Shown here in pieces: positions 3,002-58,688 of a stretch of DNA of 64,000 bases. Numbering within the stretch: the first letter of the stretch is position 1; every line of letters begins with the position of its first letter. The notes below the pieces were generated by a model that was given only the letters and a program-made list of their open reading frames with translations, did not search any database and was not told the DNA's origin. A program made the position numbers and the translations under genes. This DNA comes from Giardia intestinalis (lineage: Eukaryota): the NCBI GenBank assembly GCA_000002435.2, contig CM018793.1. One strand, written 5' to 3'.

Positions 3002-5527
3002 TTAACTACTTAAAGGACGGAACAGCGAGGGCTCACGGTTTAAGGAGCCACTGTTTTTCCTTCTGAGAAGGAACCAGACCAGACAGCCGATGATAACCGC
3101 AACAATGGCCACTGATGCGACAGAAATCCCAGCTATCATTCCTGTCGACATTTTGCTAACACTCTTCTTTGGTGGGTCGACGCAGGTATTCCCGCTGGGA
3201 ACCTGCCCTCCCATGCAGTGACACTTTCCTCGTCTGACGGCTGCTCCCGATGGGCAGCTCCTTTGGCACGTTGTGCTATCTAGTTGTATATTATCCAAAG
3301 GATCCACACAGCGGACACATCTGTCCAGAGAATCACACATTGCGCATCCTTGGTACTGAGGACAAGGTTTGGTTGGCTCGCAAAGGGTTCCGTCATTGCT
3401 AGGCGCATAGCTATCTTCACACATGCACGCCATGGCCCTATTCTCTTCTTTCGGGCTAGAGTTCTGAGGACATTGTGTGATGCATGTCCGCCTGAAGAGA
3501 TCAAGGAAGCTGCCGCTCTTGCACTTGAGGCAAGAAAGGAGACCACCGTCGAGCGTGCACTCTATACAATTAGAAATTCCAACAAGATTGTCCCCACATG
3601 GGACACATTTGTTTCCTGTGTCGGGGTTTTCCTGTGGAAAGCTCCCTGTATAACAATGATGACTGCTCACACACTCTATCGAAGAGGATGTGAGCTTCAG
3701 ATACATATCATCCTGGCAGCGAGTACAAACGCCTGGTCCTGCACATCGTTTGCAGTGAGCATCTGAGCATCTTGTGCAGACCTTCAGGGTAGTGTCCTCG
3801 AAGTGCCCATCTCCACAAGCAACGACGCAGCTTCCAGAACTAGAAGATTCGGACCTAAGAAGGAAACGGTCCTGTTCGCACGAGGTACACTGTGCACCTG
3901 CACCTGAGCAAACTGTGCACCCGGCGGCGCACTTCCTACAGGTCGTCCCATCTTTGTAGAATCCGTCGTGACAGACTAAGCACAGTTGCCTATTACCAGA
4001 CACGCAGGTCTTGCAACCAGCAACAGAGCACGGGTCAGGATCAGCTACGCAAGCACTTGAAGAAATGATATATCCCGCTGCGCAGCGCGAACATACCGTG
4101 TCAGATGAACACTCTTCGCAGTTTGCAATGTTACAATCATAGCACGTTGACCCAGCAGCATTCGGTCTCTTTGTACCGCTACAGGCTGTGCATTTCAACC
4201 CAGTTGAGGTATATGTGCAAGCCGTGCAATCCTGAATTCCATTGTTGTTAGTATCGCTGCAAAGTAAACACTGTTTGTCCCATAGATCGCCAGGATCTTC
4301 ACTGTCTTTCGGATAGTACGGAGCGGTGCATTCGTCAAGTGGTACGCAACTGAGCACTCCATTGTCTACCTTCTTATAATAATATAAAAAACAACTCTCG
4401 CAGGTAATTGCTCCTGTGTTTGCAGTGTAGGTGCACCTAGAACACCCATCTAGGCCCCCGCGAGATGCGTCACCGCAGAATATACACAGATTGACTTCAT
4501 CAACTGTCTTTCGGAAATGTGATGACGTACACTCTTGGCTGGAGAGGCACATGGCTGAGTCTCCTCTCGACAATAGATAGTAGTCTGGGTGACACGCCTC
4601 ACACACTGGCTTGTTGAGTAAGATCGTTACCTCTTCTTTAAAGGAACACTTTGCACAACCCTCTACCCCAGCAAACGTTCTCACCTCATAGTAGGAATCA
4701 AGATCATCGTATTCATATTCAGAAGTGTCGTTGCAAAGCATGCAGGACTGCCTATTGGCTGCGGGCTCAGGGAGACGAAAGAAGCCATCTTGACAAAGCT
4801 TACAAACACCGGGGATAGTGTCTACTTCTTTGCATATAAGATTTCCTGGCGCGCCGTGAGTGATTGAATAGCATCCACCCTTGTAAAGGAAGTACCCATT
4901 TCCACATAACTTACAAGTACCATCTGGATAGTCCTGGGATGTGCATGCGTTATTATCCGTTGACGACAGACACTTTCCGTCAACAAGATACTCAGACTTT
5001 ACCGAGCAACGTGAGCAGTACTTGTTGCCTCCCAAGTCAACGTTGCAGTGTTTCTGCTTGCACTTGCCAGGAGCAGTATGAAACATATTAAAAGAGATAA
5101 CCTCCTCACACGTAAGTGTACTATCTCTTGAAGGCTCCACAAGCTCAAGAACTCCTGAAGCAGCACTAAAGCAGCCTCCACTGTAAACGTGGTACCCTGA
5201 AGAACTGCAGGAGAGACACGCGTAAGAGTCTGGGTCAACCTCACAGCCAGCAGAGCCAACCTCATGACTATCTTGCTCCACACACGCCCCATCAATAAGA
5301 AGGAGCCCCGGAGTGCATTTGAGGCACAGTTCTGCAGGACCCAGGTTCAGACACATTCCAAATGCGCATCTCCGCCGATTAGCATCAGATTTGCATGTTA
5401 TCAACATGGGGGCCTCAACACGGGGGTTTTTAGAATCGATACCGTCTTCAAAGAGGGGGGTCCCATTGTCAGTATCCACACACAAAAGACCGATAGATGA
5501 CAAAACTAGACCTAGAAAAATGTACAT
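3002..5527 (-). CDS. High-cysteine membrane protein (HCMP), type-I membrane topology
   Basis: The ORF track start at 5569 is TTG. The first ATG, at 5527, gives MYIFLGLVLSSIGLLCV (signal peptide). The body is about 800 aa rich in CxxC/CxC motifs. The C-terminus is GMIAGISVASVAIVAVIIGCLVWFLL (TM helix) followed by the RRKNSGSLNREPSLFRPLSS tail, which is not a CRGKA tail, so this is an HCMP rather than a VSP. Confidence 0.75.
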   Translation of the reverse strand: MYIFLGLVLSSIGLLCVDTDNGTPLFEDGIDSKNPRVEAPMLITCKSDANRRRCAFGMCLNLGPAELCLKCTPGLLLIDGACVEQDSHEVGSAGCEVDPDSYACLSCSSSGYHVYSGGCFSAASGVLELVEPSRDSTLTCEEVISFNMFHTAPGKCKQKHCNVDLGGNKYCSRCSVKSEYLVDGKCLSSTDNNACTSQDYPDGTCKLCGNGYFLYKGGCYSITHGAPGNLICKEVDTIPGVCKLCQDGFFRLPEPAANRQSCMLCNDTSEYEYDDLDSYYEVRTFAGVEGCAKCSFKEEVTILLNKPVCEACHPDYYLLSRGDSAMCLSSQECTSSHFRKTVDEVNLCIFCGDASRGGLDGCSRCTYTANTGAITCESCFLYYYKKVDNGVLSCVPLDECTAPYYPKDSEDPGDLWDKQCLLCSDTNNNGIQDCTACTYTSTGLKCTACSGTKRPNAAGSTCYDCNIANCEECSSDTVCSRCAAGYIISSSACVADPDPCSVAGCKTCVSGNRQLCLVCHDGFYKDGTTCRKCAAGCTVCSGAGAQCTSCEQDRFLLRSESSSSGSCVVACGDGHFEDTTLKVCTRCSDAHCKRCAGPGVCTRCQDDMYLKLTSSSIECVSSHHCYTGSFPQENPDTGNKCVPCGDNLVGISNCIECTLDGGLLSCLKCKSGSFLDLFRRTCITQCPQNSSPKEENRAMACMCEDSYAPSNDGTLCEPTKPCPQYQGCAMCDSLDRCVRCVDPLDNIQLDSTTCQRSCPSGAAVRRGKCHCMGGQVPSGNTCVDPPKKSVSKMSTGMIAGISVASVAIVAVIIGCLVWFLLRRKNSGSLNREPSLFRPLSS

Positions 5528-6181
5528 GCTATCCGATGGTTGGCGGAGATTTATTATTAATTTTCCCAACGTAGAGTATAGAAACGCCGAGAGTCAGATA
5601 GTCATATGCTATTGTGCCATAGCCGTGCTGCCTTTAAACTCGAGCAGGTAGTGAGATATCTCCACGCCATTCTAGCCTCACTAGTGTTTCTGCGCATCTT
5701 ACCAACAAATTTCTGATGCCTGCACATTGAAATAGAGTGCAATCGAATTTTTGTACCAGAGGCCTAACTGGTCAAATTGCCGCATGCCCGCTTAAACGGC
5801 TAATCCCACCTTCTGACGCATTTCTTGACACCTTCCCAAGAAGTCGAAATAGTTTGTTTACAGACAATCTGTTGCACACTTCAGAACGTTACTTTTTGCT
5901 TCTTGCTCTTTTTGTCGGTACAGTTCCATTGAAGATGGAGTACTCATTGCTGTCCATTGTGCTCTTTGACTGCGACATATGGGCTTGTGTAGTGCCGTCA
6001 TAGAGCGCCCTAAGCTCTGCTAAAAGTTAGAGCAGGTCTTTTGAGATATGAGCCATGGTCACGGCTGGTCCGTGTTCTAATCCGTCAAGTGCAGCTTTAT
6101 CTTCATCAGTAGGCATAGCTAAGCCCCGAAAGTGCAGCCCGCGGGCAGCCCCGGGCCGGGATAAAAATAAAGACCCGGGCC

Positions 6182-7171: not shown

Positions 7172-7736
7172 GGCATGCGTGCAGGGCGGCGGTGGACCCG
7201 CGTAAGCATTTGTTGAAGCACACCGGATGACTCAGTGGAAGGGGATCTCGCTGGGATAATCCGTTTTAGCAGGCCGACAAAGCAACTATTAGCTTGATTT
7301 ACTCCTCTAAGACAGATAGGCCCTTGCATTGCCTGTCCCCATCAGCGATATTAGCCTTGTTCTGTGCACTGCGTAGGATGCATACAGCTCTGTGCCGTAT
7401 ACTAGTAAAGTAGGGTGCGTCTCTCTATTGGCATAGTATGTCAATCTCTTGCATTATTAGATGGTCCATATAGCTCTATCCACTACTTACAACTAGCAGA
7501 ATAGACAGCTTGCTACTCTGCGCAAGCATCTGGGGACGTATGCAGGCACGCCATGTGGCACCACGTCCTTTGTGGAGCGCTGGAGGACTACACAGGTGAG
7601 GGTCTACCATCAAGGTGCGGACACGTTGCTTCCTGACATGGAAGGTCAATGAGGCTATCCAGATGGTCCAGCAATGGTAGAAGGCTAGCAGATGTGATCG
7701 TATTGGCCATCAGCACTGTCACTAACACCAACACGC

Positions 7737-9362
7737 ATGACTAATAGATCTAGCAGGGCCGCAATGTTGCTACTAGTTCTCTGCTTTTTGATGAGCGCCT
7801 TCACCGCGCAACGCACTAAACAACCCACATCCGACTGCGGAGTCGCAAACTGCGCCCAGTGCGTCTCTGGCGACAACACAAAGTGCGAGACGTGTAGCCC
7901 TGGCTTCGACCTCAGCAACGACAAGACGCAGTGCAACCAGAGGCCCGCGTCCAACTGCGGAGTCGCAAACTGCGCCCAGTGCGTCTCTGGCGACAACACA
8001 AAGTGCGAGACGTGTAGCCCTGGCTTCGACCTCAGCAACGACAAGACGCAGTGCAACCAGAGGCCCGCGTCCAACTGCGGAGTCGCAAACTGCGCCCAGT
8101 GCGTCTCTGGCGACAACACAAAGTGCGAGACGTGTAGCCCTGGCTTCGACCTCAGCAACGACAAGACGCAGTGCAACCAGAGGCCCGCGTCCAACTGCGG
8201 AGTCGCAAACTGCGCCCAGTGCGTCTCTGGCGACAACACAAAGTGCGAGACGTGTAGCCCTGGCTTCGACCTCGACGAAAACACAAAGCAGTGCAACCAG
8301 AGCCCTGCGTCCAACTGCGGAGTCGCAAACTGCGCCCAGTGCGTCTCTGGCGACAACACAAAGTGCGAGACGTGTAGCCCTGGCTTCGACCTCGACGAAA
8401 ACACAAAGCAGTGCAACCAGAGCCCTGCGTCCAACTGCGGAGTCGCAAACTGCGCCCAGTGCGTCTCTGGCGACAACACAAAGTGCACAAAGTGCCAAAG
8501 TAACTACTTCCTCACTCCAGAGAAGAACGCTTGCTTGACGTCTTGTCCGGCCGGGTCGTACGCGGTTGGGCAAACGTGCGCGCCCTGCGACTCCTCCTGT
8601 GCGGAGTGCAGCGGGGCCGGCGCTTCCAAGTGCACGGCCTGTCCCGCCGGGAAGATGCTGAGGTACGCCGACGAGAGCAAGCTTAATGAGGGCGGCCAGT
8701 GCGTGGAGCAATGCGTGGAAGGCCCGGAGTGCGAGACGTGCGGCCTAACAATTGGAGGTACCAAGTACTGCTCGAAGTGCAAGGGGAGCAACGTGCCGCT
8801 CAATGGCGTCTGCACAAGCAATGCGGCCAGGACTCTGTTCTGCACCACTGCCGCTAACGGTGCCTGCACGGCCTGCGCCGCCGGATACTTCATCCAGGAG
8901 GGCGGATGCTACAAGACTGACAGGCTCCCCGGGAAAAGCATCTGCACAACTGACAATGGAGGGAAATGCCAAACGTGTGCTAACGGACAAACCCCAGACG
9001 GAGGGACTGGAGTGTGCCCGCTGTGCGACTCCACCTGCAAGACGTGCGCAGCAGGACAGACACAGCAGTGTCAAACTTGCTTCTCTGGGTACTATAAGTC
9101 TGGAACAAAGTGTGTGAAGTGTGATGCTAGTGACGGCCAAATTACTGGCGTAACCGATTGCGTGAGTTGTGCTCCCCCGTCTACTAATCAGGGACCTGTC
9201 ACCTGCTATGTGAAGATGGATGGCAGCAGTGGAGGGAGTAGCACGAACAAGAGCGGCCTCAGCACAGGGGCCATAGCGGGCATCTCCGTTGCTGTGATTG
9301 TCGTAGTCGGGGGCCTCGTTGGCTTCCTTTGTTGGTGGTTCATCTGCCGGGGCAAAGCGTAG
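7737..9362 (+). CDS. vsp: Variant-specific surface protein (VSP) with tandem 40-aa repeats
   Basis: ATG at 7737; an alternative Met at 7764 gives MLLLVLCFLMSAF (signal peptide). CxxC motifs run throughout. The C-terminus is GAIAGISVAVIVVVGGLVGFLCWWFICRGKA-stop, the invariant VSP TM plus CRGKA tail. An AGTGAAT poly(A) signal lies 15 nt after the stop. Confidence 0.9.
   Translation: MTNRSSRAAMLLLVLCFLMSAFTAQRTKQPTSDCGVANCAQCVSGDNTKCETCSPGFDLSNDKTQCNQRPASNCGVANCAQCVSGDNTKCETCSPGFDLSNDKTQCNQRPASNCGVANCAQCVSGDNTKCETCSPGFDLSNDKTQCNQRPASNCGVANCAQCVSGDNTKCETCSPGFDLDENTKQCNQSPASNCGVANCAQCVSGDNTKCETCSPGFDLDENTKQCNQSPASNCGVANCAQCVSGDNTKCTKCQSNYFLTPEKNACLTSCPAGSYAVGQTCAPCDSSCAECSGAGASKCTACPAGKMLRYADESKLNEGGQCVEQCVEGPECETCGLTIGGTKYCSKCKGSNVPLNGVCTSNAARTLFCTTAANGACTACAAGYFIQEGGCYKTDRLPGKSICTTDNGGKCQTCANGQTPDGGTGVCPLCDSTCKTCAAGQTQQCQTCFSGYYKSGTKCVKCDASDGQITGVTDCVSCAPPSTNQGPVTCYVKMDGSSGGSSTNKSGLSTGAIAGISVAVIVVVGGLVGFLCWWFICRGKA
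7836..8486. repeat. Perfect 120-bp tandem repeat, about 5.4 copies, in-frame inside the VSP (40-aa unit ASNCGVANCAQCVSGDNTKCETCSPGFDL(SNDKT/DENTK)QCNQ(R/S)P)
   Basis: ccaactgcggagtcgcaaactgcgcccagtgcgtctctggcgacaacacaaagtgcgagacgtgtagccctggcttcgacctc... recurs at 7831, 7951, 8071, 8191, 8311 and 8431. There are two sub-variants: copies 1-3 versus copies 4-5. Confidence 0.9.
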
Positions 9363-9376
9363 ATGTAGACTTAGGT

Positions 9377-9383
9377 AGTGAAT
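9377..9383 (+). terminator. Putative Giardia polyadenylation signal AGTGAAT (AGTRAAY class) for the VSP
   Basis: The motif sits 15 nt downstream of the TAG at 9360-9362, the canonical spacing for Giardia mRNAs. Confidence 0.4.
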
Positions 9384-46502: not shown

Positions 46503-47766
46503 ATTTACTCTCCGCTTCACCGGGGCGGGGTTGTCCCCTGCCACCTGACCAGGTCCTCCATGCGAGCCACCGCCGCCCCGGACAAGCCACTCCCCCCATG
46601 CACCGGCCGAGATCCAGAATCCGAAATCAGAAGGTCAGATGTCGTCCAGCTCCGACGGGGAGGATTGTGCCTCCTCCTCCAGGGTGGTAACGAATGCAGA
46701 TGAGCGTCCGAGGCTGGTGGTGGGATCAGCCTCTCACACGCTAAGCTGACGCTCACCAGGATCATTGCCCGCTGGTCGAGATGGACCCACACGTGACCCA
46801 TGTAAATCCCTCGACAAGAAATAGGAGTTGGGGTGCTTGGCTGGCAGAGGTGGACTGATCCTGCCCGCACCGGAGAGTATTGGCCTGGGCCACCTGCCGG
46901 GTGTCTGCCACAGCAGTTGGCAGTGCCTGACACCCTCGAGTAGACAGGTGTCGTCTGCCGAGCAAGCCGACTTCGGTGAGCCAGTCCTAATCGCTCTTGG
47001 TGCCTCAGACGACGCCTCTCAGAGAGGTGGCCCTGGACCGACGCCTCGACAGACCGAAGCATCACCCCCAAGTGTGTTGTGCAGTGCAGATGGAGCCCAC
47101 ACGTCACTGAGCCAGATGCACTGCACAGGGTGGGCGTCGACGCGGTCTCGTGCTGGGTGACGGACCACCTGCAAGAGCGCACTGCGATCCATGAGCAGAG
47201 GGCCGGGCCTCTTCTCCGACACAACGCATGGGAGTACTCCATCGACATCCACGAACGCGTACCACACCCCAAGATAGAGGCGCACGGGGAGCGCACCCCC
47301 GACAGCAGGGTCGATGGTCCACGTCATGGGGAGACGAAGAGGCACCCCAAGAAACGGGGTAGACACCCGGGGTCGTGGCGTGCGATCTTCGTCATGGAAC
47401 ACCAGGGTCCCGGGCCACGTGGAGGCCAGATCGCCGCGACAGACGCAAGACCCTGAATAACGGGTGCTCACTAGATGTCAGACGATGGTTGACCCCGACG
47501 GGCCAGAGGGAGGGAAGTCCTAGGGGGCACCGCGAGGAGCGGCAGCTTTTAGGAGAGCTGGGACATAGGGGTTCTTCCGCCGGAATCGAGGGCATCCGAC
47601 CTCGGACTCTGGACTCTGCCTAGAAGCGAAAGACCTGCCTTCACTTGCCTCAACTGCCATTAAACTCCGATCTTTCCCAGTGCATCGAAGCAAAAATAAG
47701 ACTGTCCGGGCTGCCTCCACGTGCTAATAGATCCCATCAGAAGCAGACGAGTCGTGGAGATGGGCT
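46503..47766. repeat. Left arm of a 1264-bp perfect inverted repeat (partner 57425-58688)
   Basis: Every ORF called in this arm has an identical-translation twin on the opposite strand of the right arm, and their coordinates sum to 105191 (for example 47019-47471(-) equals 57720-58172(+), and 46517-47296(-) equals 57895-58674(+)). The ends were mapped by direct base comparison (left ...tggagatgggct|g versus right c|agcccatctcca...). The arms are GC-rich and have no recognisable coding homology. Confidence 0.9.
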
Positions 47767-47963
47767 GCTCTCCTCGCATCGATGCAGCTCATCGGCAGGC
47801 ACAGGATATCGGGTGCACCGTCCCCAGCCATGACGGTGTCAACGGCGATGTGCATAGCACTCTCGAGGGCAGGGGAGCGGTCACCCCTTTTCCCGGTTGC
47901 TGGCTGGCTAGCAACGTACATAAGGCGCACCCGCTTGTCAGGCAGCTGCACCACTAGTGACGC

Positions 47964-47970
47964 GTTTACT
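47964..47970 (-). terminator. Putative polyadenylation signal AGTAAAC (AGTRAAY) for VSP unit A
   Basis: On the minus strand it lies 13 nt downstream of the TAG at 47985-47983. Confidence 0.4.
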
Positions 47971-47982
47971 ATCTAAGTACAT

Positions 47983-49710
47983 CTACGCCTTGCCCCGGCA
48001 GATGAACCACCAGCAGAGGAAGCCCACAAGGCCAGCCACGACGACAACCGCCGCGACGGAGATCCCCGCGATGGCCCCCGTGGAGAGCCCGCTCCTGTTG
48101 GCGCCAGAGGACACACAGGAGGTCCCACTGCTGTCTAGACTGAAGCCACTGTTGCACTCTTCACACACACCGTCCATCACACAGCTCTTGCAACCACCCA
48201 CAGAGCACAGCACACACCCGCTGCCGTCCTTGTTGGGCTTCTTACTACTGTCACAAGAGGTACACACAGCGGGGGTCATACCAGCCCCAGTCAAAGGTGT
48301 CGGGGCTGTACACTGAGAGCAGCCATCCACTCCCACATATGCCTTAGCAGTATCACCAGTGCCTGTTGATGTGCCTAGGGGGTTACCACATGCCAATACA
48401 GACTGATCAGTAGCCTTTGCTTCTGGGACTATGAAGTACCTATTGTTGGCCGCCTCTGTGCATATCCCACTACTATCTGCTTTCTTGCACATATGACTAC
48501 CTGGTACTTGACCAACCTTATAACAGCCATTCATGTACAAGAAGTATCCTGTAGTACACTGTGTACATGTATGACTGGCACAAGTATTAGCTCCTTTACC
48601 AGTATCAGTACATATACCATCAATTGGTACCTTACTGTTATCCCCACAGTATGAGCAATAGTGCTTTGTGTTGCCATTCTCGTCAATTATTATAGCATCG
48701 CAGGCTCCAGATGTCCCCCCGCAGGCAGTCTCATCCTCACAGGTCTTGGTACATGTAACAGGACTGGTACCACTCTGCTTGTAGTTCACCTTACAGGAGT
48801 TGCAGGTCAACGAGTTAGAGAAGGTGCACGTTGCACAACCAGGCACTCCATCTGTTGGGTTATCACAAGAGACACATGTGCCAGGACCACTGCCTTTCAT
48901 GAAGAATCCAGGCTTGCATGTATCACACTTATCATTGCCAGCAGCAGAGCATGTAGCACAATTATCACCACAGGCTGCGCATGTAGCGGTACCAAAGTAC
49001 CCCTCTAAGCATCCACTACAGGTTGGATTGCTATTTCCTGTCTTGGTACAGGTCTTGCAGCCAGGAACACCTGTATTACCGCTAGCCTTGTCGCTATCAT
49101 CGCCACAGGGGATACACTTAGTATTTCCCTCACTTAAAAAGTGCGTATTGCCACTTGCACACTCTCCCTCCGCAACGCACGTCGTCGTCCCGTCTGCCGC
49201 CGTCTTCACCATCTTGCTACTGCTGCAGGTCCTACATTGCGGCTTGCCAATAGTTGCATTGTACTCACAGGTGGCACAGTCAGCTATTCCACATGCCTTA
49301 CATTGGCCTGTTGTCGGGTCTGCATAGTTACCAGCACCGCATCCACTAGCCTCTACACAAGTGTTATCACCCTTCAGGTACTTCCCCTCAACGCATGCCG
49401 AGCATTGATTTTGATTACTCTCTGAGCAGGCAGAGCAGCCCTCTCCGCACTTCTTACACGTATTAGAAACGCTATCCTTAACGTACCCAGCCTTGCACTC
49501 AGTACACGTGGCAGGTCCTGGACTACTAGCTGGCGCCGTGCACTTGAGGCAGTTGGCCACTCCTTTGTTCTCATTCGCTCCCTTGATATCATGACAGAGT
49601 ATGCACTCGCTACCCTTCTCTGATGGTGCAGCCGGGTTCTTGAACAGGCCGTTATCTGCCTTACAAGTAGTGCATACTCCATTACTGGCTGCTGTGCAGA
49701 TATCACTCCA
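47983..49710 (-). pseudogene. vsp: VSP paralogue (unit A of tandem array), intact CRGKA C-terminus but no initiator ATG or signal peptide (5'-truncated VSP or donor copy)
   Basis: The frame is open from directly after an in-frame TAG (49713-49711) as WSDICTAASNGVCTTCKADNGLF...VANCLKCTAPASSPGPATCTEC... through to ...GAIAGISVAAVVVVAGLVGFLCWWFICRGKA-stop. The first in-frame ATG lies more than 110 codons in, and the ORF track 'M' at 49560 is GTG. There is no hydrophobic leader. Confidence 0.6.
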
Positions 49711-49760
49711 CTATCACCCTCTATCACACACTATCACCCATTATCACCCTCTATCACCCA
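49701..49760. repeat. Decamer microsatellite (GGGTGATAGN on the gene strand; CTATCACCCN on +), about 6 copies, at VSP unit junction. Equivalent blocks lie at 51521-51570 and 53321-53380
   Basis: tatcactcca ctatcaccct ctatcacaca ctatcaccca ttatcaccct ctatcaccca lies between the poly(A) signal of the upstream unit and the first codons of the downstream unit. It recurs at each of the three unit junctions. Confidence 0.6.
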
Positions 49761-49786
49761 CTGTACAGCATTCACTACCTAAGTAC

Positions 49787-51532
49787 CTACGCCTTCCCCC
49801 TGCACACGAACCACCAGCAGAGGAAGCCGACGAGGCCCCCCACAACAACGACCACAGCGACGGAGATCCCCGCGATGGCCCCCGTGGAGAGCCCGCCCCT
49901 GTTGGCGCCAGAGGACACACACTTACCATTGTCTAGACTGAAGCCACTGTTGCACTCCCCACACACATCATCCACCACACAGCTCTTACAATCACCCACA
50001 GAGCATGTCACACACCCAGTGCCGTCCTTGTTGGGCTTCTTATCACTGTCACAGGAGGTGCATATAGCAGCAGTCATGCCAGCCTCAGTCAGAGCTGTTG
50101 GGGCTGTACACTGTGAACAGCCATCCACCCCCACGTATGCCTTCTGACCAGCCAGCTCGACCCCAAGGGGGTTCCCACAGGAGAGGACAGACTGCTTGTC
50201 CTTGGTGGGCGAGGGAGGGATGAAGTACCCGGCTGCCGCCTCTGTGCAGACACCCTCGCCTGCCTTTGTGCACATGTGACTACCGGGGGCATTGGTGGTA
50301 CTATAGCAACCACCCATGTATAGGAAGTACCCTTGAGCACAATAGCTGCAAATGTGATCAGTACACCCAGCATTTGTTCCTTTGCTATCAGTGCATATAC
50401 CATCAATAGGGAACTTACCACTATCCCCACAGTAGGAACAATAATGCTTTGTGTTGCCCTTATCATCTATTACTATAGCATCACAGGCGCCAGAAGTACC
50501 CCCACAAGCCGTTGTATCCTCGCAGGTCTTCACACACGTTGTTCCCTGTAACTTGTAGCCGATCTTGCAGCGGTTGCAGCTGGCCGGGCCCGGGGCGGCT
50601 GGGGCTGTGCAAGAGAGGCATCCTGCAAGCCCGCTGTAGCCACTATCATTACCATTCTCGCACGAGATGCACTTTCCTTCGCCGGTGCCGGCCAGGAAGA
50701 ACCCCTCCTTGCACGTTTTACATTTAGTCTCATCTGTTTTAGCTGAACATGTGACACAGTTGGCCCCACAAGCCTCACAAGTGTTTGATGACTGTTCAAA
50801 GAAGTATCCATCGAGGCAAGCTGTGCAAGTTGGAGGGGAGCCATCTGCACTCTTAGTGCATGTCTTACACCCTTCTTTGCCTTTATTGTTATTATCCACG
50901 TCTTTAGTATCTCCGCATAATAAGCACGCCGATTGGTCCTCCTTCATGAACAGCTCGTTATCAGCTCCTTGACACCCAGCATAAGAATTTTCCACACAGG
51001 TCGAGGTTCCGTCGAGGGTTGTCCTGGGAATCTTATTTGAATTACAAGTCAGACACTTGCCCTTTGCCGTTGCACTATCAAATGAGCATGTTGCACAGTT
51101 GGCATCGAGGACAGTACAGGCAACGCAGGTCATGCTAGTGTCATCGGGGTAGTGATCGTTGTTACACGTACCTTTGTCTACACACTGGTTCTCTTTCAGG
51201 TACTTCCCTGTCTCGCACGATGTGCACTGATTTTGATTGGCTCCACTGCATGTAGCACAGTCGCTGTGGCATGCAGCACACTCTGTATCACTCTTCTTAT
51301 ACGTTCCAGCCATGCACTCGGTGCACGTGGCCGCTCCTGTATTGCCACCAGGTGCCGTGCACTTGAGACAGTTGGCCACCCCCTTGTTCTCATTCGCTCC
51401 TGTAGCATCGGAGCACAGGATGCACTCCCCACCAGGAGTCACCCTCTCTGCCTTGTTCTGGAATATGTACTGACTATTTGTATTACACTCAGTGCACACT
51501 CCACTACTGGCTGCTGTGCATATCACACTCCA
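49787..51532 (-). pseudogene. vsp: VSP paralogue (unit B), CRGKA tail present, no initiator ATG or signal peptide
   Basis: Open from after the TAG (51535-51533): WSVICTAASSGVCTECNTNSQYIF...VANCLKCTAPGGNTGAATCTEC... to ...GLVGFLCWWFVCRGKA-stop. The ORF track 'M' at 51526 is GTG. The 3' roughly 500 bp (49787-50290) is nearly identical to unit C (51597-52100). Confidence 0.6.
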
Positions 51533-51596
51533 CTATCACCCTCTATCACCTTCTATCACCCTATCACACATTGTACAGCATTCACTACCTAAGTAC

Positions 51597-53330
51597 CTAC
51601 GCCTTCCCCCTGCACACGAACCACCAGCAGAGGAAGCCGACGAGGCCCCCCACAACAACGACCACAGCGACGGAGATCCCCGCGACGGCCCCCGTGGAGA
51701 GCCCGCTCCTGTTGGTGCCAGAGGACACACACTTACCATTGTCTAGACTGAAGCCACTGTTGCACTCCCCACACACATCATCCACCACACAGCTCTTACA
51801 ATCACCCACAGAGCATGTCACACACCCAGTGCCGTCCTTGTTGGGCTTCTTATCACTGTCACAGGAGGTGCATATAGCAGCAGTCATGCCAGCCTCAGTC
51901 AGAGCTGTTGGGGCTGTACACTGTGAACAGCCATCCACCCCCACGTATGCCTTCTGACCAGCCAGCTCGACCCCAAGGGGGTTCCCACAGGAGAGGACAG
52001 ACTGCTTGTCCTTGGTGGGCGAGGGAGGGATGAAGTACCCGGCTGCCGCCTCTGTGCAGACACCCTCGCCTGCCTTTGTGCACATGGACTTACCCGGCTG
52101 AGCTGATATACTATAGCAACCACCCATGTACATAAAGTACCCCGTAGTACAAGACTCACAGACATGGTTGTCACAAGTATTGCCTTGCTTATCAGTAGCA
52201 CATAGTCCATCTATAGGATACTTATCATTATCTCCACAATAAGAACAGTAGTGAAGCTCCTTCCCTGTACTATCTATTATCATGGCATCACAGGCGCCAG
52301 AGGTACCACCACAAGCAGTGTCATCCTCACAGGTCTTCACACATGTATAGTCATTCCCTGCATCTCCATTGGGCTGCTTCCTATAGTTTGGCTTACAGTC
52401 AGTGCACTTGAATGTGCCACTGTTAGAGCATGCACTGCACCCTTCGCGACCCTTATTGTCCACACTGTCGCATGAGACACACTCACCAGGTGCTTGGCCT
52501 CCTTTCAGGAAGTATCCCGGCTTGCAGGTTTGGCACTGGTTAGCATTAGCGCTGTTGCAGGTGGCACAGTTGGTCCCACAGGGCTTGCAGGTGGTATCAA
52601 AGTAGAATCCAGGGAGGCATGCTGAGCAGATTGGAGGCTGTGCCAGGTCGGTTTTCTTACACCCACTGCACTCAGCAATTCCCTCGTCAGGGGCGGTTCC
52701 TCCGGTAGCGCTGCATAGTATGCAACTGTTCTCATCCTGGCTTAGGAAGTGTGTTCCCACTGTGTTTAGCGCTGCACATCCCGCCTTATCCACGCACTCT
52801 GTTGATCCATCGACATACCCTTTAAGGAGAGGCTTGGCTCCCCCACAGGTGCTGCACACCGGCTTCTGTAACTGATCGTTGTATGCACATGCGGTGCACC
52901 CAGTTATCTCACTGCACGCCTTGCACTCCCCGGACTGTTTGTCTGCGTACTTACCAGCACCACATTGACCAGCCTCTACGCAAGTGTTAGTATCAGTCTT
53001 CAGGAACTTCCCGGCCTTACAAGAGGTGCACGCATTCGGACCGGCTCCACTACACGTCTCGCAGTCGGTATGACATTTGGTACATGCGCCACCATCGTTG
53101 TAGTACCCATCTTGACACTCTGTGCACGTGGCTGCCCCCTTATTATTAGTTGGTGCTGTACATGTAGCGCAGCCCTCGACTCCCATATATCCATCTGCTC
53201 CCGTGGCATCATGACAGAGTATGCACTCGCTACCCTTCTCTGATGGTGCAGCCGGGTTCTTGAACAGGCCGTTATCTGCCTTACAAGTAGTGCATACTCC
53301 ATTACTGGCTGCTGTGCAGATATCACTCCA
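51597..53330 (-). pseudogene. vsp: VSP paralogue (unit C), CRGKA tail present; an internal ATG at 53186 would give a product without signal peptide
   Basis: Open from after the TAG (53333-53331): WSDICTAASNGVCTTCKADNGLFKNPAAPSEKGSECILCHDATGADGYMGVEGCATCTAP... The junction with unit D (53210-53500) is identical to the A/B junction (49590-49880). Confidence 0.6.
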
Positions 53331-53406
53331 CTATCACCCTCTATCACACACTATCACCCATTATCACCCTCTATCACCCACTGTACAGCATTCACTACCT
53401 AAGTAC

Positions 53407-54744
53407 CTACGCCTTCCCCCTGCACACGAACCACCAGCAGAGGAAGCCGACGAGGCCCCCCACGACGACGACCACAGCGACGGAGATCCCCGCTATGGCC
53501 CCCGTGGAGAGCCCGCTCTTGTTGACGCTTCCACCAGTGCCTACTTCTGATTCTAAACATATGACTGAACTGCCAGATGATGACACACATTGCTTGCATC
53601 CAGAGATCTTCTCTGAGCACTTCTTGCATAACCCAGCAGTGGTATCGTCACCGTTTTCCTTGTAATACCCAGTGGCACAGGTCTTGCACTTATTAGGGTC
53701 ACCTGCAGTCGAGCACGTAGCACAAGTAGAATGGCACTCCCCACAGGCCCCACCTTGTGCCTGTAGTCCGTTGGCACACGTCTGACATGTTCCTCCCTGT
53801 GCACTACTACAGACCTGCTTACCAGGCTGTCTATCTGTCTGATAGCAGCCGCCGTCCTTGAGGAAGTAACCCTCATTGCATTTTGTACAGGCCCCACTTG
53901 TGATTGTTGCACAGAAGGCTACTCGTGAACTGGCCGCACAGTTGCCGTTCAAGGGGGCTTGTTGAGTGTTCTTGCACTTTGAGCAATATGCAGTTCCTCC
54001 TATCTGAGCCCCACACTCTGCGCATCCATCGTTTGTAGAACTCACGCTGCACTGGTCCATGCACGTGCCCCCATTGACAGGAGTATTAGTATCTGTATAC
54101 TGAAGCATTTTCCCAACAGGACAGGCCGTGCACTGATTGTTGGCCGGTCCAACGCACTCAGCGCACTCAGGGTTGCATGCCTTACACTTCTTGTCACTAT
54201 CTCCGTAGTATCCGCTGATGGCTGTGCAGTCAGGTACGCACTGGTTTGTAGGGGTGAGGTAGTCGCCATCATTACATTTAGTGCAGACCTCGTTGTCGGT
54301 CTTCGGGTTATCGCAGGCCTTGCAGTTGGGCGTGTTGCACGCCTTCTCGACGCACTGGCCCCCGTTCAGGACGTAGGCGGGGTCGCACGCCGTGCAGACC
54401 TCGTTGTCGGTCTTCGGGTTATCGCAGGCCTTGCAGTTGGGCGTGTTGCACGCCTTCTCGACGCACTGGCCCCCGTTCAGGACGTAGGCGGGGTCGCACG
54501 CCGTGCAGACCTCGTTGTCGGTCTTCGGGTTATCGCAGGCCTTGCAGTTGGGCGTGTTGCACGCCTTCTCGACGCACTGGCCCCCGTTCAGGACGTAGGC
54601 GGGGTCGCAGTCAGTGCAGGCCTCGTTCTCGGCCTTCGGGTTTGTGCAGTCCCTGCAGTTGGGCGTGTTGCAGTTTGCACTAGAGCCCTTCTCGTTGTGC
54701 TTTGCCAGCACGGTTGCACAAACTAGGAGAAATCCTATCAACAT
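53407..54744 (-). CDS. vsp: Complete variant-specific surface protein (unit D, 5'-most of the array) with signal peptide and three 37-aa repeats
   Basis: The ORF track start at 54765 is GTG. The ATG at 54744 gives MLIGFLLVCATVLA (signal peptide). The protein is Cys-rich with CxxC motifs and ends GAIAGISVAVVVVVGGLVGFLCWWFVCRGKA-stop. An AGTGAAT signal follows the stop. Confidence 0.85.
   Translation of the reverse strand: MLIGFLLVCATVLAKHNEKGSSANCNTPNCRDCTNPKAENEACTDCDPAYVLNGGQCVEKACNTPNCKACDNPKTDNEVCTACDPAYVLNGGQCVEKACNTPNCKACDNPKTDNEVCTACDPAYVLNGGQCVEKACNTPNCKACDNPKTDNEVCTKCNDGDYLTPTNQCVPDCTAISGYYGDSDKKCKACNPECAECVGPANNQCTACPVGKMLQYTDTNTPVNGGTCMDQCSVSSTNDGCAECGAQIGGTAYCSKCKNTQQAPLNGNCAASSRVAFCATITSGACTKCNEGYFLKDGGCYQTDRQPGKQVCSSAQGGTCQTCANGLQAQGGACGECHSTCATCSTAGDPNKCKTCATGYYKENGDDTTAGLCKKCSEKISGCKQCVSSSGSSVICLESEVGTGGSVNKSGLSTGAIAGISVAVVVVVGGLVGFLCWWFVCRGKA
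54281..54650. repeat. 111-bp tandem repeat, 3 copies plus a degenerate 4th, in-frame inside VSP unit D (37-aa unit KACNTPNCKACDNPKTDNEVCTACDPAYVLNGGQCVE)
   Basis: gtgcagacctcgttgtcggtcttcgggttatcgcaggccttgcagttgggcgtgttgcacgcc... recurs at 54281, 54392 and 54503 with 111-nt spacing. Confidence 0.85.
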
Positions 54745-55415
54745 TAGCCGGAGTACACGTGCCACTGCTCTTCCGCTAGGCTGATGTGTTGCCGCGAGCA
54801 GTGAGAGACAGTCACTCTTGCTCTCTTGATCAGTTGTACTGGAGAAGGACGAGATAGGAGCACGCCAACCGGAGGCCAGCTGACAGTGCAGTTATTCCTG
54901 ACTTCAGTAGAAACAGGACCAGTGAGGGCCAGACTCAGACCGCACCTCTCTTGTGGAATGATTGCTCGGGGTGCACTCCTGTACATTGCTGTCACTGTAT
55001 CACTGACCCCGCCTGCAGGTGCGCTCAGAGGTCTCATGGGTAAGCCGCGCCCACTTCTCGACCGTCCGGAGACGATGGCTGGTTGTGGATAACATACTAA
55101 GAGCTCCTCTCCATCGATGCATCCAGAGCTCAGTGTGGTCCCTGATCGGCATACTCTGTCTGGGGCACTCCGCGTCGGCCTCCAGGATCCGGCCTGCTCA
55201 GGGCCATATGAGCCGCTAGTATGCCCTCCTTGGCCTGCCATCGACAGCTCGCACTGGCCGCCTTGCTCGGGTAGTAGCCAAGGCCACTCCAAAGGATGGC
55301 TCCGGATTGCAGTTAAGATTAGCGATGGCTGTTGGCTCCACCCCCTGTCCCAGCTGCCGCAGAGGGAGCCCTAGGAGTTGCTAGTAACAGTGCAGTTAGC
55401 GGCTCTGCAGGGTCG

Positions 55416-57294
55416 ATGGGCGTTTGGGGAGCGTGCTCAGCAGGGGCCTTCAGCGTTATCTACTCTCTCAGGGGATGCCCCTACCTTGCTGTGAAAGAGA
55501 TCCGGCTCGATGGTCTGGGTCAGCACGGTGTGGATGCTAAAGCGTGGGCTGACCGCTCTTCTTAACCTCTCCCACCCAGACGTTCTCAAATACCACCAGG
55601 TACTTACAGACGGCAACACGATCCTTGTTGTCACAGACCGCTGCTGTGGAGACCTCCGGCAGTTCATCACCGACTACAGGGACATTCACGAACCTATTCC
55701 CAGCAAGCTGGTGCTCTCTCTTCTGGAGCAATTGGCTGGCGCCCTTGCCCACCTCCACGGGCTCAGCAGAAGTGCCCACAGCGGCCTGCCCTCTAGCGTT
55801 GTCCTCGAGCCCGACAACGTCATGTTCGCTGGGGACGGGCGGCGTGTTGTTCTTGCAGACTTCGGGTTCTGCAAGGGCATATCGAGTGGAGCTGCGAAGG
55901 CCGGCGACCCCGCGTACATGGCCCCCGAGACGCTCCTCCGCGGTATCATAACTCCCGCGTCCAACATCTGGAGCCTCGGGGCCGTCGCATACGAGCTCGC
56001 CACCCTGAGGAAGCCGGACTTCCTGGGGGACAGGGATCCTGCAGAGGTCTTCGTCGACGGATGGAGGCCGGACCTGAGCGGTGTCGCAGACGACCTCGCA
56101 AGGAGCGTCCTTGAGAGGATGCTCGTCCTCGATCTCGCCGAGAGGCCGACTGCCAGGGGGCTCGCCCGTCTACTTCGGAGGCTTGACATCTCTGCTGATG
56201 AACAGGAGGCCCAAGACACAAGGCTAAAGGAGGTGCGTGAAGCCTTTGTAGAAGCCTTGAATAGGGCCAACAACGAAACAGTAGTTCTTAGGAAGGACCC
56301 TCCTGATCGAGCTGCAAGAATGGACATCATCAGGGAGCAGTGTGCTGCTGCCGTCAAGTTATTCAGAGAAATACAGGAGATTAAGGCAGAGATGGGCGAA
56401 ACCAAAGAGTCAGAGGAGTCAGAAGAGCCAGAGAAGCACCTAATAGAGGAGGACGACTCCACCGACCTCATGAGGGCAGTCGATAGAAACGACGTGGAGG
56501 CCGTGAAGGCTCTCATACCGCTCCAGGGGGGCATGAAGATGAAGGGATGCGCACTTGTAGGTGACTGGAAGATATACGAGGGAACTGCTCTGATAAGGGC
56601 GGCGGTATATGGATACACAGAGATCGTGGAGCTGCTCGCGGAGAAAGAGAAAGGACTGAAAGATAGCAACGGATGGACCGCCCTCATGTATACTGCAAGG
56701 ACTGGCCACGCAGACTGTCTTAAGCTCCTGCTAGAGAAGGAAAGCGGCCTGAAGAGCGACAAGGGGCGGACGGCTCTCATGTCTGCAGCAAGTGCTGGCC
56801 ATTTAGAGTGTATCAAATTGCTTTTGAAGAACGAGGTTGGCATGCAGGATAACGATGGGGAAACCGCCCTTATGGCTGCAGCAGGGAACGGCCATAGAGA
56901 TTGCGTCGAGTTGCTCCTGGAACGGGAAGGCGGTATACAGGATAACAGCAAATGGACTGCTCTTATGATTGCTGCAGAACGTGGCGAAGCTGGCTGTGTT
57001 GAGCTACTCGTAGAAAAGGAGAGTTGTGCGCAATCGAGGGATGGATGGACAGCTCTCATGTGGGCTGCAAAGAATGGCCACGCAAGCTGTGTCAGATTAC
57101 TTGTGGAAAAAGAGGGCGGTATGCAAAATAACGATGGATGGCCCGCTCTCACAGTCGCTGCGCAGAGCGGCTACATAGAGTGTGCGAGGCTCCTTGTGAG
57201 GGAGAAGAATATTAGAGATAATATGGACGAAACTGCCCTTGACATGGCTAAGCTATGGAGACGCCATGAGATAGTCGCCCTCCTCTCAGAGTAA
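55416..57294 (+). pseudogene. NEK-family kinase-like gene with C-terminal ankyrin repeats; N-lobe and remainder are in different frames (apparent 1-nt frameshift near 55535-55560); catalytic HRD motif also degenerate (pseudokinase)
   Basis: Frame 0 (ATG 55416 to stop 55565) encodes MGVWGACSAGAFSVIY...LAVKEIRLDGL, the Gly-loop and VAIK-Lys region. Frame +1 (from about 55510) continues ...LNLSHPDVLKYHQV...ADFGFCK...YMAPE... through to ANK repeats (GWTALMYTARTGHADCLKLLL and others) and a stop at 57292-57294. The HRD position reads SVVLEPDN. So this is either a sequencing indel or a genuinely disrupted or pseudokinase gene. Confidence 0.5.
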
Positions 57295-57424: not shown

Positions 57425-58688
57425 AGCCCATCTCCACGACTCGTCTGCTTCTGATGGGATCTATTAGCACGTGGAGGCAGCCCGGACAGTCTTATTTTTG
57501 CTTCGATGCACTGGGAAAGATCGGAGTTTAATGGCAGTTGAGGCAAGTGAAGGCAGGTCTTTCGCTTCTAGGCAGAGTCCAGAGTCCGAGGTCGGATGCC
57601 CTCGATTCCGGCGGAAGAACCCCTATGTCCCAGCTCTCCTAAAAGCTGCCGCTCCTCGCGGTGCCCCCTAGGACTTCCCTCCCTCTGGCCCGTCGGGGTC
57701 AACCATCGTCTGACATCTAGTGAGCACCCGTTATTCAGGGTCTTGCGTCTGTCGCGGCGATCTGGCCTCCACGTGGCCCGGGACCCTGGTGTTCCATGAC
57801 GAAGATCGCACGCCACGACCCCGGGTGTCTACCCCGTTTCTTGGGGTGCCTCTTCGTCTCCCCATGACGTGGACCATCGACCCTGCTGTCGGGGGTGCGC
57901 TCCCCGTGCGCCTCTATCTTGGGGTGTGGTACGCGTTCGTGGATGTCGATGGAGTACTCCCATGCGTTGTGTCGGAGAAGAGGCCCGGCCCTCTGCTCAT
58001 GGATCGCAGTGCGCTCTTGCAGGTGGTCCGTCACCCAGCACGAGACCGCGTCGACGCCCACCCTGTGCAGTGCATCTGGCTCAGTGACGTGTGGGCTCCA
58101 TCTGCACTGCACAACACACTTGGGGGTGATGCTTCGGTCTGTCGAGGCGTCGGTCCAGGGCCACCTCTCTGAGAGGCGTCGTCTGAGGCACCAAGAGCGA
58201 TTAGGACTGGCTCACCGAAGTCGGCTTGCTCGGCAGACGACACCTGTCTACTCGAGGGTGTCAGGCACTGCCAACTGCTGTGGCAGACACCCGGCAGGTG
58301 GCCCAGGCCAATACTCTCCGGTGCGGGCAGGATCAGTCCACCTCTGCCAGCCAAGCACCCCAACTCCTATTTCTTGTCGAGGGATTTACATGGGTCACGT
58401 GTGGGTCCATCTCGACCAGCGGGCAATGATCCTGGTGAGCGTCAGCTTAGCGTGTGAGAGGCTGATCCCACCACCAGCCTCGGACGCTCATCTGCATTCG
58501 TTACCACCCTGGAGGAGGAGGCACAATCCTCCCCGTCGGAGCTGGACGACATCTGACCTTCTGATTTCGGATTCTGGATCTCGGCCGGTGCATGGGGGGA
58601 GTGGCTTGTCCGGGGCGGCGGTGGCTCGCATGGAGGACCTGGTCAGGTGGCAGGGGACAACCCCGCCCCGGTGAAGCGGAGAGTAAAT
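57425..58688. repeat. Right arm of the 1264-bp perfect inverted repeat (partner 46503-47766)
   Basis: See the left arm. It is the reverse complement of 46503-47766, with identical six-frame translations throughout. Confidence 0.9.

Follow-up and report, generated by a model that had tools for sequence, protein, structure and literature searches.

Arrays of psiVSPs make up a large share of the surface-antigen repertoire of Giardia and may serve as a reservoir or be mere junk; in strain WB, psiVSPs number 208 against 133 complete VSPs (PMC7641422). Within the 64,000-nucleotide stretch of Giardia intestinalis DNA analysed here (the window), four VSP units lie head-to-tail on the minus strand, a complete gene (D) and then three 5'-truncated copies (C, B and A), and the question is what those copies are. 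The original prediction likened them to the silent donor cassettes of other antigenic-variation systems, or alternatively took them to be simply pseudogene fragments. The observation behind it is confirmed and the interpretation is partly supported: judged from its sequence, the locus is very probably the VSP linear array vsp142-145, with one expressible head gene and three 5'-truncated psiVSPs. The locus is nothing new in kind, but it is a compact test case, with three intact cassettes, sharp conversion tracts, and one tract that recurs in a complete gene elsewhere.

The four units correspond to vsp142-145 of the Adam et al. 2010 catalogue for Giardia intestinalis WB, on chromosome 5, whose rows list lengths of 409, 508, 529 and 445 aa and a linear-array flag in agreement with units A, B, C and D. 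VSP stops at 53407, 51597, 49787 and 47983 give unit periods of 1810, 1810 and 1804 nt, which bears out the expected recurrence of VSP 3' ends every ~1.8 kb. All four units end in FLCWWF(V/I)CRGKA (the TM-CRGKA tail) and carry multiple CXXC motifs, and D and C match Pfam PF03302 with E = 1.6e-76 and 1.3e-40, respectively. WB linear arrays hold over half of the VSP repertoire, their downstream members never have an Inr, and their junctions average 60 bp and reach 241 bp (Adam et al. 2010, BMC Genomics 11:424; PMC2996952). Here, four VSPs adjoin across stop-to-frame-opening junctions of similar size (Table 1), D has an Inr (flagged 'X', first in array), and A, B and C have none; the catalogue gives 'No'/'no' for vsp144 and vsp142 and 'NA' for vsp143. 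Exact-sequence look-up returned XP_001704185.1 for C, XP_001704186.1 for D and XP_001704187.1 for the flanking NEK kinase. The protein of C occurs only in the 2007 annotation and is absent from newer annotation sources.

Table 1. Features of the vsp142-145 array and its surroundings (positions in the window).
Feature	Position	Strand	Basis
Unit D, complete VSP, 445 aa, 59 Cys, 20 CXXC	53407..54744	-	PF03302, exact look-up, catalogue row
Initiator element TAATGTT with ATG of D (54744-54742)	54740..54746	-	same Inr as catalogued for vsp145 (Adam 2010, Additional file 1)
111-nt (37-aa) tandem repeat in D, 3.5 copies, 96% matches	54281..54672	-	repeat analysis
D/C junction, 76 nt; poly(A) signal 53390-53404 and (GGTGATAGAG)n 10-nt repeat	53331..53406	-	sequence, stop scan
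Unit C, start-less VSP frame, 577 codons, 70 Cys, 26 CXXC	51597..53330	-	reading frame, PF03302, catalogue
C/B junction, 64 nt; same architecture, other repeat arrangement; three frames closed	51533..51596	-	sequence, stop scan
Unit B, start-less VSP frame, 581 codons, 70 Cys, 26 CXXC	49787..51532	-	reading frame, catalogue length
Unit B tract (aa 54-412), 355/359 aa identical to P0024 aa 157-515	50297..51373	-	protein comparison
B/A junction, 76 nt, identical to D/C junction	49711..49786	-	block alignment
Unit A, start-less VSP frame, 575 codons, 70 Cys, 26 CXXC; last unit	47983..49710	-	reading frame, catalogue length
Block 1, 256 nt, 100% identity	49588..49843 = 53208-53463	-	exact alignment, permutation
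Block 2, 515 nt, 3 mismatches, 370 nt exact	49762..50276 = 51572-52086	-	alignment, permutation
Inverted repeat, perfect, 1264 nt, bracketing array and NEK kinase gene	left arm 46503..47766, right arm 57425-58688	.	

D differs from the units downstream of it at the 5' end. It is vsp145 (S2; GL50803_137605; XP_001704186.1; KAE8304771.1), annotated 'VSP with INR', and agrees with the catalogue row in length, Cys count, CXXC count, TR111 x3, TAATGTT and first-in-array position. PyAATGTT occurs once on the minus strand within 47800-55000, at ATG 54744 of D, and the N-terminus of D, MLIGFLLVCATVLA, is the sole Met-led hydrophobic stretch of the four units, scoring 2.84 against at most 1.45 in a simple Kyte-Doolittle hydrophobicity scan (not SignalP); on this measure the normal signal peptide ascribed to D is confirmed. 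Across complete VSPs the Inr, PyAatgTT, is found on 135/136, and pVSPs that lack the 5' part are located within arrays (10.1101/2022.03.07.483299).

The frames of C, B and A do open directly after the junction stops at 53331, 51533 and 49711, with WSDICTAASNGVC, WSVICTAASSGVC and WSDICTAASNGVC, respectively, and all start at W-S-D/V-I-C. This point lies ~100 codons into the VSP body, just past the N-proximal GGCY motif; full-length relatives have ~100 additional N-terminal residues, namely a signal peptide followed by ...GYFLFMGGCYKT..SE(I/V)CTAAS. The claim that none of the three has an in-frame ATG or a leader holds for the leader, with no hydrophobic segment after any in-frame Met of A, B or C, but not for the ATG, which occurs at codon 49 of C, 74 of B and 167 of A. 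Earlier annotations used these codons: C read from ATG 53186 is vsp144 (GL50803_114121, 529 aa), and B and A read from their first ATGs give 508 and 409 aa, the lengths listed for vsp143 and vsp142. No Inr lies at any of these in-frame ATGs in the scan of 47800-55000. A, B and C have the VSP homology and TM-CRGKA tail of psiVSPs and no signal peptide or proper start, and D alone has the signal peptide and Inr of a complete VSP. It is likely, then, that only D is equipped for expression and that C, B and A, as 5'-truncated psiVSPs with no start context and no leader, would be unable to make a surface VSP on their own. A splice or missed upstream exon might still have made them ordinary genes, but the Giardia branch/3' splice motif CTRACNCACAG has zero matches in the array with one mismatch allowed and the ATGs of the junctions soon reach a stop; no such rescue is visible.

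Each truncated unit is preceded by the poly(A) signal of the upstream unit and a 10-nt TGATAG-containing repeat with stops in three frames. The extended poly(A) signal ACTTAGRTAGTRAAY sits 3-5 nt past each VSP stop; compared with shuffles, as were the repeat counts, its 5 copies in the 64-kb window (0.03 expected) fall one per VSP stop (5/5), with none elsewhere, and the perfect TM-CRGKA tail and poly(A) signal described for A, B and C are both present. TGA/TAG stops shut all three frames in every junction. The D/C junction contains two ATGs, each with a stop after 4-5 further codons, as do the ATGs of the B/A junction; the ATG that follows lies among the unit's first codons and starts an ORF of 115-117 aa that is out of frame and has no leader. 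The C/B junction is indeed unlike the other two, at 64 nt vs 76 and with 72-88% identity, and the 3' side of unit A has the poly(A) signal (47964-47978) without the GTGATAG repeat. The same junction of poly(A) signal and GTGATAG repeat is found on two independent metagenome Giardia scaffolds; on one (L002) the unit opens at RVICTAASNGVC, and the other (L004) retains GLLFIGGCYKTESQPGSEICTAA. A literature search with the GTGATAG repeat returned primer matches only. A candidate parallel in assemblage B, the start-less 'VNDPAGVSIDSLCRP' VSPs of GS (L003), was dropped, as no VSP 3' end lies upstream and the context differs.

Within the array, sequence blocks are shared between units in a manner that points to recombination. 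The A/B and C/D junctions had been described as identical over ~290 bp; the identity is real, but it extends over 256 nt exactly (block 1), growing to 332 nt at 97.3% with megablast. Block 1 takes in the final 54 coding nt of the preceding unit, then its stop and the junction, and runs on to codon 41 of A and C. Likewise, the 3' ~500 bp of B and C do form a common block (block 2, which takes in the TM-CRGKA tail and runs into the 3' UTR), although three mismatches mean that it is not identical, as had been stated. A short block is common to A and B as well. Among 779 polymorphic columns, the runs measure 48 sites for A-C and 91 for B-C; the best of 10,000 column permutations gave 11-14 sites, and because 0/10,000 reached either observed run, neither is due to chance. 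Statistically, the shared blocks are unequivocal tracts of recombination, and the mosaicism is not an artefact of reading. The proposal of ongoing gene conversion or unequal crossing-over is borne out as far as recombination goes, but 'ongoing' is more than one sequence can show. D stands apart from this exchange: its similarity to A, B and C is confined to its last 118-122 nt (89-96%), the same ~120-nt VSP 3' region occurs at 85% in an unrelated VSP of the window, and the match, by its sequence, is that of a generic conserved VSP 3' end. No A-C-derived sequence was found in D beyond it, and the catalogue places D in clade II and the downstream units in clade I.

One further tract leads out of the array. 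When compared at the protein level, ~1.08 kb of unit B matches P0024 (XP_037901531.1), a complete WB VSP with a signal peptide on another contig (1.485-Mb). P0024 is probably vsp139/VSP1269, going by length, Cys and CXXC only (689 aa, 80 Cys, 28 CXXC); an early guess, GL50803_0050375, was replaced by this better-supported match. P0024 is a mosaic in its own right. Another complete gene, VSP4A1 (P0027), carries part of the B tract too, and B may therefore have received it; the protein mosaics of B, P0024 and VSP4A1 fit transfer in either direction. The units are a patchwork of recombination tracts: an A/C 5' block, a B/C 3' block, a short A/B block and the B/P0024 tract. In assemblage AI, VSPs are reported to be enriched in gene-conversion tracts (PMC12669663).

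The A-C core has pS of 0.74-0.78 and pN of 0.30-0.37, with synonymous sites saturated, and 69/71 Cys columns are conserved across A-C; nucleotide divergence between units is 33-37%, yet Cys and CXXC counts are equal. Saturated synonymous sites together with a kept cysteine scaffold and frame suggest that the divergence arose under protein-level selection, in which case translated genes must have carried the sequence at some stage, whether copied in, out, or both. Over evolutionary time, such passage would place the array within the pool of VSP sequences that recombine.

The reading that competes best with a psiVSP array drawn from that pool, and that we consider quite possible, is that A-C are evolutionary junk: dead remnants of unequal crossing-over, recipients only, whose frames are kept passively by conversion from functional VSPs. 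It would account for the missing Inr and leader and the stops in all frames upstream, such units are pseudogenes in current annotation, and 'discarded vsp genes' was an alternative already in Adam 2010. Other arrays hold plainly broken or miniature units, such as the interrupted unit of L002 and the 70-aa mini-unit of L004, and the first part of the B tract is present in two complete genes. On the other hand, to hold three ~577-codon frames open, with equal Cys and CXXC at such divergence, conversion would need to overwrite the units frequently and completely, and no near-identical long source gene for A or C was found among 246 retrieved relatives (unit A not a query). The simpler suggestion that these are just pseudogene fragments fits annotation practice, but three frames that are still intact while the synonymous sites between them are saturated contradict pure in-place decay.

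We can also speculate in the opposite direction. The start-less units could be true sequence donors, with the B/P0024 tract recording how conversion of a gene by a pseudogene gave rise to a new antigen that can be expressed, and the TGATAG repeat under selection as an insulator that holds the cassettes silent. On the sequence at hand we think this rather unlikely, but if the units were true donors, Giardia would be able to generate new antigens at the DNA level as well as switching them epigenetically.

It is improbable, by our estimate, that the units are expressed after all, either as short proteins from internal ATGs (529 aa in C) or as RNAs that feed RNAi-based VSP silencing via the conserved 3' ends. 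Each unit does have its own extended poly(A) signal, and transcripts have been reported, at a lower level, for all 178 ATG-started WB vsp ORFs, Inr-negative ones included (PMC3610916), so a psiVSP reading does not imply silence of A-C at the RNA level. One study claims that membrane targeting of VSPs does not require the N-terminal part that precedes 'motif 1' (PMC3656445) and, if so, the ATG-started ORF of unit C is harder to dismiss. Against this, no in-frame Met is followed by a signal-peptide-like segment, accepted VSPs all have a signal peptide and with the single exception given above an Inr, and G. muris psiVSPs are essentially untranscribed (PMC7641422).

A programmed donor-cassette system, in which A-C segments are copied often into D or other expression-competent VSPs during infection, has known precedents. 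In Trypanosoma brucei, tandem arrays of incomplete VSGs retain coding potential, segmental gene conversion can assemble mosaic variants, and the switching mechanism that has been demonstrated is conversion into one telomeric expression site. In Borrelia burgdorferi, vlsE adjoins an unbroken series of cassettes of its own family, which have no promoter or start, comprise only the variable central part and closely match vlsE. Neisseria pilS is a further system of this type. A-C likewise lack a promoter and 5' end, as silent copies do, and they are start-less yet intact with a conserved cysteine scaffold, sharp recombination tracts, and, in B, 355/359 aa in common with a complete VSP elsewhere. 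However, Giardia is not known to have an expression site, the cassettes of this array are nearly full-length, each with a TM tail and poly(A) signal of its own, and Giardia is reported to switch antigens epigenetically or post-transcriptionally and not by recombination. The adjacent expressed gene is of the other clade and shows no import, only the generic 3' end, the B tract may have been received rather than given, and the reported, strikingly syntenic VSP loci of the AI isolates WB-C6 and Be-2 speak against high-frequency rearrangement. The likeness to silent donor cassettes therefore holds for start-less, intact copies and not for import into D, and we regard a programmed system here as very improbable. 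Nor is the likeness fresh, as downstream members of these same linear arrays were proposed as silent recombination cassettes or discarded remains in a paper that also gives GENECONV evidence (Adam et al. 2010; PMC2996952), and the hypothesis has been stated for G. muris too (PMC7641422). An assembly artefact, with repeated units or identical blocks arising from mis-joined near-identical VSP reads, is scarcely credible. In its favour, no counterpart of unit B was found among 2007-annotation proteins, its long tract recurs in a gene known only from the newer annotation, and short-read assemblies never pass the flanking inverted repeat. Against it, D, C and the NEK kinase are consecutive 2007 accessions, D and the kinase recur in the 2020 annotation, Adam 2010 lists four members with exactly these ORF lengths (from assembly and directed sequencing), and the junction architecture is repeated in two unrelated metagenome assemblies.

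The linear array of one complete gene and three psiVSPs is thus already known, as is the cassette idea, both published in 2010; it is the same thing as the WB linear arrays (PMC2996952), head-to-tail with short junctions, an Inr and an extended non-coding region upstream of the first member, clade-I downstream members without an Inr, and documented recombination, and it differs in nothing essential. The psiVSP arrays of G. muris also place VSP copies without signal peptides beside few complete VSPs, with phylogenetic intermixing that points to gene conversion or recombination (Xu et al. 2020, Microb Genom; PMC7641422). Those arrays comprise 5-23 genes and are telomere-adjacent, whereas the WB array has three psiVSPs, is chromosome-internal and has a complete gene at its head. 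Three details read from the sequence appear to be absent from the Giardia VSP literature examined: the junction in which (GGTGATAGAG)n repeats put stops in three frames, the truncation point that the units share just past the N-proximal GGCY motif, and the B/P0024 tract.

In other isolates, exact look-ups with D, the NEK ORF, P0121, P0024, P0001 and the GTG-started ORF of unit A returned no orthologous locus. A DH contig (L001) reached through an 88%-identical NEK (P0122) has no VSP and was judged a paralogous locus, and a literature search for the AY1421xx accessions found nothing. Short-read contigs that carry the upstream TPH-domain gene are 99.4-100% identical to the window and all end either at 45586 or shortly after entering the inverted repeat; an independent one (L005) stops 30 nt into the repeat arm. 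They stop before the array, and its copy number rests on the assembly. As to older names, S2 is D, and S6 is an array member elsewhere.

On the minus strand four VSPs terminate, at stops 53407, 51597, 49787 and 47983 as originally predicted, and the units that they close are listed in the table together with neighboring features. The ATG of unit D is enclosed by TAATGTT, the sole PyAATGTT initiator on the minus strand of the array region, and its N-terminus, MLIGFLLVCATVLA, is the sole hydrophobic leader among the array units; within D, a 111-nt unit is repeated 3.5 times. Units C, B and A, too, are built as was claimed, with frames that each open immediately behind a stop codon and TM-CRGKA at the C-terminal end; each unit has exactly 70 Cys and 26 CXXC. 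Across the 64-kb window there are five copies of the extended VSP poly(A) signal ACTTAGRTAGTRAAY, versus 0.03 expected by chance; four of them lie behind the array stops, the other behind a fifth VSP (7737-9362). The original prediction also denied C, B and A both a leader and an ATG; we indeed find no leader, but in-frame ATGs are present, first at codons 49 (C), 74 (B) and 167 (A). C and B are equally long (1810 nt, window 49787-53406) despite junctions of 76 versus 64 nt and ORFs of 577 versus 581 codons; these 12-nt differences cancel, and the equal length is probably a coincidence.

Features of the VSP array and its surroundings, with entries from the catalogue of Adam et al. 2010
Feature	Position	Strand	Description	Catalogue entry
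Unit D	53407-54744	minus	complete VSP gene, Pfam PF03302 match	vsp145: clade II, 'S2', GL50803_137605, LA_TR111, first in array, 111 nt x3, chr 5, TAATGTT, 445 aa, 59 Cys, 20 CXXC
Unit C	51597-53330	minus	open frame, 577 codons; opens WSDICTAAS	vsp144 (from first ATG): clade I, linear array, 529 aa
Unit B	49787-51532	minus	open frame, 581 codons; opens WSVICTAAS	vsp143 (from first ATG): clade I, linear array, 508 aa
Unit A	47983-49710	minus	open frame, 575 codons; opens WSDICTAAS	vsp142 (from first ATG): clade I, linear array, 409 aa
NEK kinase/ankyrin gene (P0121)	55362-57294	plus	586 aa, start 55534, head-to-head with D	
Inverted repeat, left arm	46503-47766		1264 nt	
Inverted repeat, right arm	57425-58688		1264 nt	
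Second complete VSP	7737-9362	plus	signal peptide, CRGKA tail	
Its 120-nt tandem repeat	7704-8603			
Its extended poly(A) signal	9369-9383			
High-cysteine membrane protein-like ORF	3002-5569	minus	without CRGKA	

Full-length clade-I relatives (e.g. P0008, P0024 and P15 proteins) have about 100 additional N-terminal residues, a signal peptide followed by APCQPDG...GYFLFMGGCYKT..SE(I/V)CTAAS, and C, B and A start at ...ICTAAS, right behind an N-proximal GGCY motif. Behind the poly(A) signal, the junctions carry a 10-nt repeat resembling GGTGATAGAG; all eight GGTGATAGWG matches in the window fall within the three junctions (0.24 expected), and because the repeat unit holds TGA and TAG with a period of 10, every junction has stops in all three frames. 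Poly(A) signal and repeat are joined in the same way in two independent metagenome-derived Giardia scaffolds: in L002 a unit opens at RVICTAASNGVC, and in L004 GLLFIGGCYKTESQPGSEICTAA is kept behind the repeat. Several WB array members (2007 annotation) begin MLYSDSDSDS...GGCYKTESQPGSDICTAAS, a start that corresponds to the ATG within AGTGAATGCTGTACAG. Sequence comparison suggests that the window junctions are shortened forms from which about 45 nt, the 'FMGGCYKTESQPG' stretch, are gone. Both scaffolds also hold degenerate array members, in L004 (1935-2147) a 70-aa mini-unit of only the last CXXC region and TM-CRGKA with a poly(A)-signal-plus-GTGATAG junction on both sides, and in L002 (1696-2173) a broken array-unit frame, with ORFs of 510 and 93 aa inside one 2009-nt period. 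Many assemblage B 'partial' VSPs begin VNDPAGVSIDSLCRP, at a point some 45 residues inside the mature protein, and L003 (GS, AHHH01000216) has no VSP 3' end ahead of this start at 3500-3560; start-less VSPs of assemblage B thus differ from the WB arrays in truncation point and context.

Against an overall identity of 63-67% between units, certain blocks are nearly invariant. The A/B and C/D junctions are identical over 256 nt, or 97.3% identical over 332 nt, so their predicted identity stands but its length of about 290 bp does not, and the 3' block common to B and C (515 nt), predicted to be fully identical over about 500 bp, contains 3 mismatches. Among 779 polymorphic columns the longest agreement runs span 48 sites for A=C, with a short A=B patch next after that block, and 91 sites for B=C, versus best runs of 11-14 in 10,000 column permutations. 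The mosaic structure exceeds chance, and its description as a footprint of recombination holds. Sequence unique to a single unit is left in the bodies of A (about 48000-49500) and C (about 52100-53200). In the diverged core of the units, synonymous sites are saturated (pS 0.74-0.78), pN is lower (0.30-0.37) and conservation extends to 69 of the 71 cysteine columns. Since untranslated DNA could not diverge in this way without stops or frameshifts, we infer that the unit bodies must have evolved within translated genes or be swapped with them.

Such exchange may be visible in unit B, whose residues 54-412 (window 50297-51373) match residues 157-515 of P0024 (XP_037901531.1 / KAE8301208.1, GL2.1 assembly) at 355 of 359 positions in protein comparison, with uninterrupted identity over stretches of 60 and 286 aa. 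P0024 is a complete VSP of WB that has a signal peptide, and its contig measures 1.485 Mb. Together with the B/C block, this tract makes B a composite of an array-type 5' end, a P0024-type body and a unit-C-type 3' end. Part of the tract is present in VSP4A1 too, and P0024 is itself mosaic, with pieces that are VSP4A1-like, P0008-like, B-like and array-like (P0009). P0024 is probably vsp139 (VSP1269, Inr TAATGTT, first in a different array; PMC2996952 Additional file 1), as judged from three matching numbers (689 aa, 80 Cys, 28 CXXC). The database queries in this search for tracts common to the array and complete VSPs were units other than A, so long A tracts may be missed. D has only its last ~120 nt in common with A, B and C (89-96%), and an unrelated VSP in the window matches at 85% over the same region; this overlap is the generic conserved VSP 3' end, and D is not a recipient.

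The array is real, shaped by recombination and already known. It was catalogued by Adam et al. 2010 (PMC2996952, Additional file 1), and the ATG-started ORF of unit C is 100% identical to Giardia WB XP_001704185.1. The same study reported that linear arrays hold more than half of the VSP repertoire, that the Inr is absent from every downstream array member, that junctions average 60 bp and that GENECONV picks up VSP-VSP recombination (PMC2996952). It also put forward the downstream members as silent recombination cassettes or, alternatively, as discarded vsp genes. Later work agrees: 135 of 136 complete VSPs have an Inr and 5'-less pVSPs are located 'in arrays of multiple pVSPs' (10.1101/2022.03.07.483299), G. 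muris has 239 essentially untranscribed psiVSPs in arrays, for which gene conversion was suggested (PMC7641422), and VSPs are enriched in gene-conversion tracts of assemblage AI (PMC12669663). For exactly this locus, observation and interpretation alike were thus already in print.

We consider it highly probable that this is a psiVSP linear array of recombination-shaped units. Unequal crossing-over and gene conversion probably created it and may go on reshuffling it, internally and with distant VSP genes. D alone among the units would be able to yield a surface protein, and the downstream units, with neither start context nor leader and insulated by poly(A) signal and three-frame stops, probably form part of a VSP sequence pool recombining over evolutionary time, as donors, recipients or both. 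That A-C are instead recipient-only junk is a serious rival, which we hold to be possible, short of probable. It seems improbable that the units are translated from internal ATGs or transcribed as regulatory RNA; motif scan and hydrophobicity found neither an initiator element nor a leader at the in-frame ATGs of A, B and C. A programmed, high-frequency donor-cassette mechanism is very improbable, because VSP switching is reported as epigenetic (PMC2996952), two AI isolates show synteny at their VSP loci and no imported A-C sequence is seen in D. An assembly artefact is unlikely, given the same junction type in independent scaffold L002, the presence of D (XP_001704186.1 / KAE8304771.1, 'VSP with INR') and the flanking kinase (XP_001704187.1) on one 4.02-Mb Giardia WB contig, and catalogue ORF lengths for vsp142-145 that match the units exactly, where C, B and A are counted from their first ATGs.

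The whole array and the NEK kinase gene are enclosed by a perfect inverted repeat (100%, abrupt ends, GC 61-63%) with arms 9658 nt apart, an arrangement that could permit inversion of the enclosed segment. The arms have no Pfam match, and NEK/ankyrin-like fragments of about 50 aa lie at the outer ends. Short-read assemblies end before or just within this repeat, and independent short-read contig L005 stops 30 nt into the left arm. The kinase gene seems 5'-truncated relative to its closest paralogues (680-685 aa), with protein similarity running upstream of the ATG to ~55362. Logan short-read contigs L006-L011, six independent ones that match the window at 100%, all stop at 45586, 200 nt past a TPH-domain gene, which suggests a further repeat or a heterozygous boundary.
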